64,000 bases of DNA from Heptranchias perlo (taxonomy: Eukaryota). The position numbers were made by a program, and so were the translations under genes. Below the pieces are notes generated by a model, which was given only the letters and a program-made list of their open reading frames with translations, made no database searches and was not told the origin of the DNA. Within the stretch, counting starts at the first letter, position 1; every line of letters begins with the position of its first letter. Positions 23,004-25,278 of this stretch are shown in pieces. The DNA lies in NCBI RefSeq assembly GCF_035084215.1, contig NC_090364.1:4340001-4404000 (forward strand), read 5' to 3'.

Positions 23004-25278
<2,275 letters not shown>

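Follow-up and report, generated by a model that had tools for sequence, protein, structure and literature searches.

The ferritin locus and its probable transcripts

The window analyzed here is a stretch of 64,000 nucleotides (C43:4340001-4404000) in a genome of 3.25 Gb. It holds twelve ferritin genes, named G1 to G12, which form part of an array at C43:4.24-4.78 Mb; over its 564 kb this array counts 86 gene or fragment units, 68 of them intact and 18 broken. The nearest named matches of the array proteins are shark ferritins. The features of the window that bear on the present analysis are the following:

564..63878: twelve ferritin genes (G1-G12) of the 86-unit array, read from the sequence
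6825..10833, minus strand: G2, intact, E62K only, HEKREH at 9908-9891
13474..15319, minus strand: G3, a pseudogene with a stop at codon 7 and with exons 2-4 frameshifted, reading QEKHED at 14639-14622
17129..20178, plus strand: G4, gene with E62/H65, head-to-head with G3
21720..36265, plus strand: first copy (G5-G6-G7) of a 14.5-kb segmental duplication
22922..22929, plus strand: TATA-like box of G5, TATAAATA, a motif reading with putative function
22957..22990, plus strand: degenerate remnant of an iron-responsive element (IRE) of G5, loop CAGAGT versus CAGTG-, under the Rfam cut-off
23004..25278, plus strand: G5, intact four-exon ferritin gene, 175 aa, with exons at 23004-23105, 24075-24221, 24642-24767 and 25126-25278
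24141..24158, plus strand: helix-B codons 60-65 of G5 (human H numbering), HEKHED, that is E62K, R63H and H65D, read from the sequence with the register from a PDB alignment
33800..36145, plus strand: G7, intact, E62K only (34710-34727), member of a second K62/N62 clade
50605..50612, plus strand: TATA position of G10, mutated to AATAAATA
50687..52963, plus strand: G10, with HEKHED at 51825-51842 and its frame intact, a recent duplicate of G5
61534..63878, plus strand: G12, intact, E62K only (62443-62460), duplicate of G7

G5 has the make-up of a vertebrate ferritin gene (four exons, about 175 aa and a match to the ferritin family) and lacks the marks of a pseudogene (broken frame or splice sites, or silence) that G3-type copies carry. 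G5 and G10 had been described as intact paralogs, and both indeed have open frames and GT/AG splice sites, the TATA-like box having changed from TATAAATA to AATAAATA in G10, which may be silent. The second copy of the duplication (49407-63998, G10-G11-G12) is 98.5-98.8% identical to the first.

The codons at 24141-24158, in exon 2 of G5, read CAT GAG AAA CAT GAG GAT and encode HEKHED where the human H chain has H60 E61 E62 R63 E64 H65, a register taken from the PDB alignment of a natural intronless copy. The preliminary description had assigned this motif to G5, G10 and G3; the assignment held for G5 and for G10, which carries the identical motif, and failed for G3, where H60Q gives QEKHED. 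It had also listed E27, Y34, E107, D131/E134 and Q141 as kept, and all of these, together with E61, were read in both G5 and G10. Compared with the residue set of a ferroxidase-active H or M chain (E27, Y34, E61, E62, H65, E107, Q141), the two genes are incomplete at K62 and D65. E62 and H65 are kept in G1, G4, G6, G8, G9 and G11. The change E62K alone, absent from the preliminary description, was found in G2, G7 and G12, so that K62 occurs in six of the twelve genes of the window.

K62 and an available E107, a pair typical of L chains, are both present in G5, the salt bridge between them being a prediction. No extra L-type cavity carboxylate was gained at positions 57, 60, 61 and 64 (a list partly drawn from PMC4117605): H60 is kept, and positions 53/57/60/61/64 read E/E/H/E/E exactly as in the E62 neighbor G6. 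Over the whole protein, G5 differs from G6 at about 12 residues and from the commonest residues of the array at about 8 positions.

Whether G5 is transcribed had been asked in the preliminary description, and the answer is likely yes. Four of six sequencing runs (X1, X2, X3 and X6), all presumed to be RNA and none so recorded, were mapped on G5. In X1, cover was confined to exons, GT..AG joints were seen and depth was zero in the intron bins unique to G5. A 96-nt contig of X1 over 24110-24205, with a depth of 848.5 and itself crossing no joint, showed no difference to G5; it is assigned to G5 because G10 differs by one nucleotide, and the pseudogenes by 16-19, over the same span. A second X1 contig had 11 differences, the number expected for array unit A62 (HEKWED), and a third matched the 3' end of G5/G10. 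Run X1 may come from the assembled animal itself. Cover of ferritin was far lower in X3, which stems from the same sample. The summed depth of contigs without the E62 letter was at most 3.8% in X1, 0.3% in X2 and 0 in X3 and X6, contig depth being unable to rank genes; the zero count of K62 letters in X3 and X6 was not taken as absence.

Rfam IREs were present at the parent gene A01 at the edge of the array and at an H-like gene on C12, and none was matched in the window or in the other scanned parts of the array (about 220 of 564 kb). A canonical loop motif lies upstream of 2 of 83 starts; a loose CAGTG motif upstream of G4 was considered as an IRE and dropped, being without Rfam support. The IRE of A01 (L021:3490-3525, C43 4.2435 Mb) is canonical, and G5, G6 and G10 retain only a degenerate remnant. 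The separate H-like gene with its IRE on C12 is the ground on which the array is inferred to be M-type; PDB matches of the array mix H and M, and copies of the GYS synteny marker lie on C43 (4 Mb away), C12 and C27.

An intact but divergent four-exon gene lies on the minus strand at C43:4217811-4209100, 26 kb from A01. It carries T61, A62, Q107 and S141 in place of ferroxidase ligands, the best PDB match of both tested exons is "L ferritin" (1RCC/1RCD/1RCI), and no Rfam IRE was found at it. We take these three structures to be of bullfrog origin, and the match suggests that the L type of this gene predates tetrapods. Two old divergent paralogs lie in the C43 4.249-4.261 Mb region: A02 (VEEQEH), with no ATG at the usual place and with a horn shark ortholog (P0001), and A03 (YKEHEQ, that is K61 and Q65), possibly another weak or dead site.

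Ancestry of the KHED motif

A 23-nt KHED pattern gave 26 matches genome-wide and its reversed control gave none, so the motif is not a chance occurrence. Exact patterns, which miss other variants, found 99 exon-2 copies with E62/H65, 6 with K62 only and 26 with KHED, and no match with the controls. All 26 KHED copies were read; 24 are broken and two, G5 and G10, are intact. The motif is thus chiefly a pseudogene trait, and because G5 and G10 come from a single 14.5-kb duplication there is only one intact KHED lineage.

G3 represents the type of the 24 dead copies, and the G3/G4 pair type has also been dispersed to C38, C725 and C1048. The 22 KHED copies found there derive from a head-to-head block of a pseudogene and a normal gene, and the five dispersed blocks tested match C43 4.718-4.728 Mb at about 97%. 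This block of a dead KHED copy and a mostly intact E62 copy is scattered to 22 places over 8 Mb (C38 9.6-17.7 Mb, C725, C1048). A co-regulated H/L cassette, made of head-to-head KHED and wild-type pairs, was considered and ruled out, since not one of the 22 KHED copies outside C43 is intact.

Array-type ferritin also occurs as seven copies without introns, all of them broken, on C3, C5, C9, C30 and C42; one is of the K62 type, which is consistent with germ-line expression. The K62 retrocopy on C9 (L075:5224-5802) would imply germ-line mRNA; it stops abruptly at an adjoining ORF, which reads like a LINE reverse-transcriptase fragment.

The introns of G5 are mostly 73-85% alike, tile by tile, to those of any copy except G10, and its exons are 91-100% alike. 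G5/G10 is sister to the pseudogenes in the tree of intron 1 (91 rows; support 87/83, branch 0.13) and in that of intron 3 (75 of 89 rows, chosen by length; support 95/82, branch 0.21); the intron 2 tree (20 rows) leaves a three-way split. Shared ancestry, as seen in the intron 1 and intron 3 trees, explains the motif, which most simply would have arisen once, in the common ancestor of G5/G10 and the pseudogenes. With intron branches of 0.13-0.21, G5 is an old, intact lineage and likely no recent accident. In a protein tree built without any L chain, G5 groups with the array genes of its own genome (83/91); it is a species-level branch of the array and not a distinct ancient L lineage.

This ancestry bears on the possibility that G5 and G10 were ordinary genes until a G3-type pseudogene recently damaged them through a short (<25 bp) conversion tract, and that they are now becoming pseudogenes themselves. 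In the exon, the likeness of G5 to the pseudogenes is limited to the tract around codons 62-65, and the letters diagnostic of the pseudogenes at codons 60 and 69 are absent; 24 potential donors exist, and the TATA box of G10 is mutated. The intron 1 and intron 3 trees and the G5-identical contig in X1 speak against such damage, and we consider it improbable.

Gene conversion appears to have shaped the exons. In exons 3 and 4, G5 has a single silent difference despite its intron branches of 0.13-0.21, and dead copies are homogenized as well: array unit A76 has 2 silent and 3 replacement differences in these exons, and exon 4 of G3 has no silent and 1 replacement difference. Such near-uniform silent sites in both G5 and dead copies point to exon-limited gene conversion, and since the exons of dead copies look conserved too, exon conservation is no evidence of selection on the protein. 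KHED itself has persisted unconverted in pseudogenes, beyond the reach of protein selection. Across the genes of the window (564-63878), exons 3-4 are 92-100% identical while introns have diverged far, a case of strong exon-limited concerted evolution. Codon 63 (CGG, containing a CpG) is a mutation hot spot, reading W, Q or H.

Ligand-mutant classes and the possible role of G5 and G10

Position-by-position counts were made on 66 intact array genes, A01 and A03 being left out. K or N at position 62 was found in 11 of the 66 and D or N at 65 in 4, with no change at 27, 61, 107 or 141 and a single one at 34, in the intact K62 gene A61, which has eight replacements in exon 1, Y34S included. The concentration on 62 and 65 gave a binomial p of 0.001 (7 of 8 events), or 0.026 (4 of 5) if conversion spread the changes. 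Twelve K/N62 units make up the second clade of the intron 1 tree (96/88), and D65 is combined with K62 in two intron lineages, G5/G10 and A62. The HENWEH class (N62, W63), likely derived from K62, has four intact members (A33, A47, A67, A71) and four broken ones (A39, A44, A52, A56). K/N62 units are less often intact than E62 units (11/18 vs 55/62; Fisher p=0.012, with copies that are not independent).

Divergence in exon 2 follows the same classes. When the exon 2s of the 66 genes are ranked by divergence, codons 62, 63 and 65 set aside, the top 11 all belong to ligand mutants. Counted by lineage, silent divergence of the ligand mutants was 6.7 in exon 2 (vs 1.4-1.6) and 1.7 in exons 3+4 (vs 1.7-1.9), an island confined to exon 2 with permutation p values of 0.00006-0.0002 at 25-31 lineages. 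No more than 2-3 of these lineages are independent, E62 genes supplied the yardstick, and an old haplotype that E62 genes also carry accounts for part of the signal. The island is the pattern that would be expected from selection against conversion. G5/G10 alone have an exon-2 silent divergence of 3.5, a level that E62 lineages also reach (up to 4.3).

Other sharks and rays were surveyed through 151 proteins (66 cluster representatives, which are biased to divergent copies, and 85 members); matches labelled Heptranchias perlo were left out, since they may be the same genes. None of the 151 proteins, representatives and members alike, carries KHED. K62 was read in 16 Stegostoma proteins and 1 Chiloscyllium punctatum protein, 16 of these 17 with E141, and a tree that included four of these carpet-shark K62 proteins set them apart as a clade of their own (100/100). 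Two carpet-shark species thus share a conserved K62+E141 subfamily, which has expanded in one of them. Single changes at 27, 34, 61, 62, 65 and 141 are scattered over sawshark, white shark, horn shark, basking shark, bamboo sharks and sawfish. Some carpet-shark ferritins, of the K62/E141 type as well as of the normal one, have annotated lengths of 258-410 aa and contain exons 2-3 twice, through real internal duplication or a gene-model artefact; HENGNH in P0089 may likewise be an annotation or frameshift artefact.

The loss of ligands in G5 probably abolishes catalysis: a human H chain with E62K/H65G/K86Q serves as a ferroxidase-null control (PMC4029007), and by analogy G5 is predicted to be ferroxidase-dead. 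We doubt, and find very improbable, that the site was instead remodelled into a slow one, mononuclear or otherwise different, in which D65 binds metal together with E27 (or E61). Histidine 65 did give way to a carboxylate and not to glycine in two lineages, and E27, Y34, E61, E107 and Q141 are kept; in place of the bridging E62, however, stands a lysine, which, on the precedent of L chains, would be expected to occupy the site.

The preliminary description went further and proposed that a division of labor between H and L subunits had been re-created within the array. The comparison does not support this proposal. An intact L-like gene pre-exists at the locus and no cavity carboxylate was gained; KHED sits in 24 pseudogenes against two intact genes, which go back to a single duplication, and the exon-2 divergence of 3.5 lies within the E62 range. 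G5 resembles an L chain only in its likely loss of catalysis and departs from it in cavity carboxylates and in lineage.

A wider form of the proposal is that G5 and G10 are selected L-like subunits of an IRE-free, likely ovary-expressed array, in which K62 chains repeatedly evolved and stabilize the cage or slow oxidation, with selection holding their exon 2 against gene conversion. We give this view, in both its parts, a tentative place below the one we prefer. It draws on the exon-2 island and the ligand mutants that fill its extreme, on the concentration of changes at 62/65 with E107 unchanged in 66 of 66 genes, on the X1 contigs identical to G5 and matching A62, on the germ-line mRNA that the C9 retrocopy would imply and on the well-supported carpet-shark clade (100/100). 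In L chains, K62-E107 takes the place of the ferroxidase site (PMC11396501). Against it stand the 2-3 independent lineages, the yardstick taken from E62 genes and the unremarkable value of G5/G10 alone (3.5); most KHED copies are dead, an L-like gene pre-exists, no carboxylate was gained, and the share of contig depth without E62, a poor measure, is small or nil in X1, X2, X3 and X6.

We lean slightly towards seeing G5 and G10 as tolerated, probably ferroxidase-dead structural subunits in a redundant array homogenized by conversion. A tolerated shell subunit is preferred to a light chain of recent invention because an L-like gene is already present in the genome and most KHED copies are broken. 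Tolerance is also favored by the mutated TATA box of G10, the homogenized exons of dead copies, the lower share of intact K/N62 units, the eight exon-1 replacements of A61 and the single ligand changes scattered over other sharks and rays. G5/G10 have K62/D65 in common with a sister lineage, which became defunct and whose copies were afterwards spread to 24 places. Few subunits of a ferritin cage need to be active. About 55 intact E62 genes of the array alone presumably feed the same 24-subunit cages, so that the loss of one catalytic site would be cheap, and a misfolding subunit would cost more than a catalytically dead one. The retained E107 would be the partner of K62, as it is in L chains, making the loss structurally harmless, and the protein of G5 may then fold, co-assemble and stay inactive. 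Exons 3-4 would be repaired by conversion again and again, which the clustered mismatches around codons 62-65 likely resist. Points counted against tolerance are the concentration on 62/65, the exon-2 island, the K62+E141 subfamily of carpet sharks, D65 in two K62 lineages and the fact that G5 stayed intact when its sister lineage died. If tolerance is all there is, the locus illustrates well how catalytic constraint can relax when a 24-mer is redundant, and it cautions that the amount of active ferritin is overestimated by counting copies.

It is conceivable, though we would not expect it, that light chains were re-invented several times in or beside the IRE-free ovarian arrays of sharks, as KHED, as the K62/N62 clade including HEKWED and as the carpet-shark K62+E141 group. 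If true, this would replay the origin of the mammalian L chain from an M-type ancestor.

Comparison with known ferritins

Mammalian L chains carry Y27, E60, G65 and E141. Like them, G5 has K62 with E107 kept and no histidine at 65; unlike them, it keeps E27, Y34, Q141 and H60, has no IRE and is not a separate ancient gene. The gene at C43:4217811-4209100, outside the window and distinct from G5, is the pre-existing chain of the locus that resembles 1RCC/1RCD/1RCI. As for the E62K/H65G/K86Q H chain, G5 is altered at the same two ligands, with the same residue at 62; it differs in having aspartate and not glycine at 65 and R63H in addition, and in being a natural gene on another backbone. According to PMC4771812, the ferroxidase center occurs only in H chains and H/L ratios are tissue-specific.

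The E62 genes of the array share with the teleost and amphibian M chain, as given in PMC4117605, four exons, E57/E64 and the full ferroxidase set. The array departs from it in massive copy number, in its ligand-mutant classes and in having no IRE in the scanned parts. The same source gives the teleost M chain as the ortholog of mammalian L; since the two are reported orthologs, a natural E62K on a near-identical M-type backbone could show what is gained from the first step towards an L chain.

Expanded ferritin families are on record elsewhere. Snailfish have a 14-copy expansion (PMC10746142), and the Greenland and great white sharks have hundreds of clustered, mostly full-length copies with ovary-specific expression, named FTL and FTH1 by similarity (bioRxiv 10.1101/2024.09.09.611499). 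The words ferroxidase, gene conversion and pseudogene are absent from the main text of the latter report, and that text thus describes no ligand-mutant classes; nor did we find ligand-mutant shark ferritins described in print, in a search that lay outside subscription journals and supplements. The 86 units on C43 with their dispersed copies resemble the Greenland and great white shark expansion, a kind of array already known in sharks. At the present shark locus, homogenization is limited to exons and one exon stays divergent; the IRE has been lost, and an L-like gene is present.
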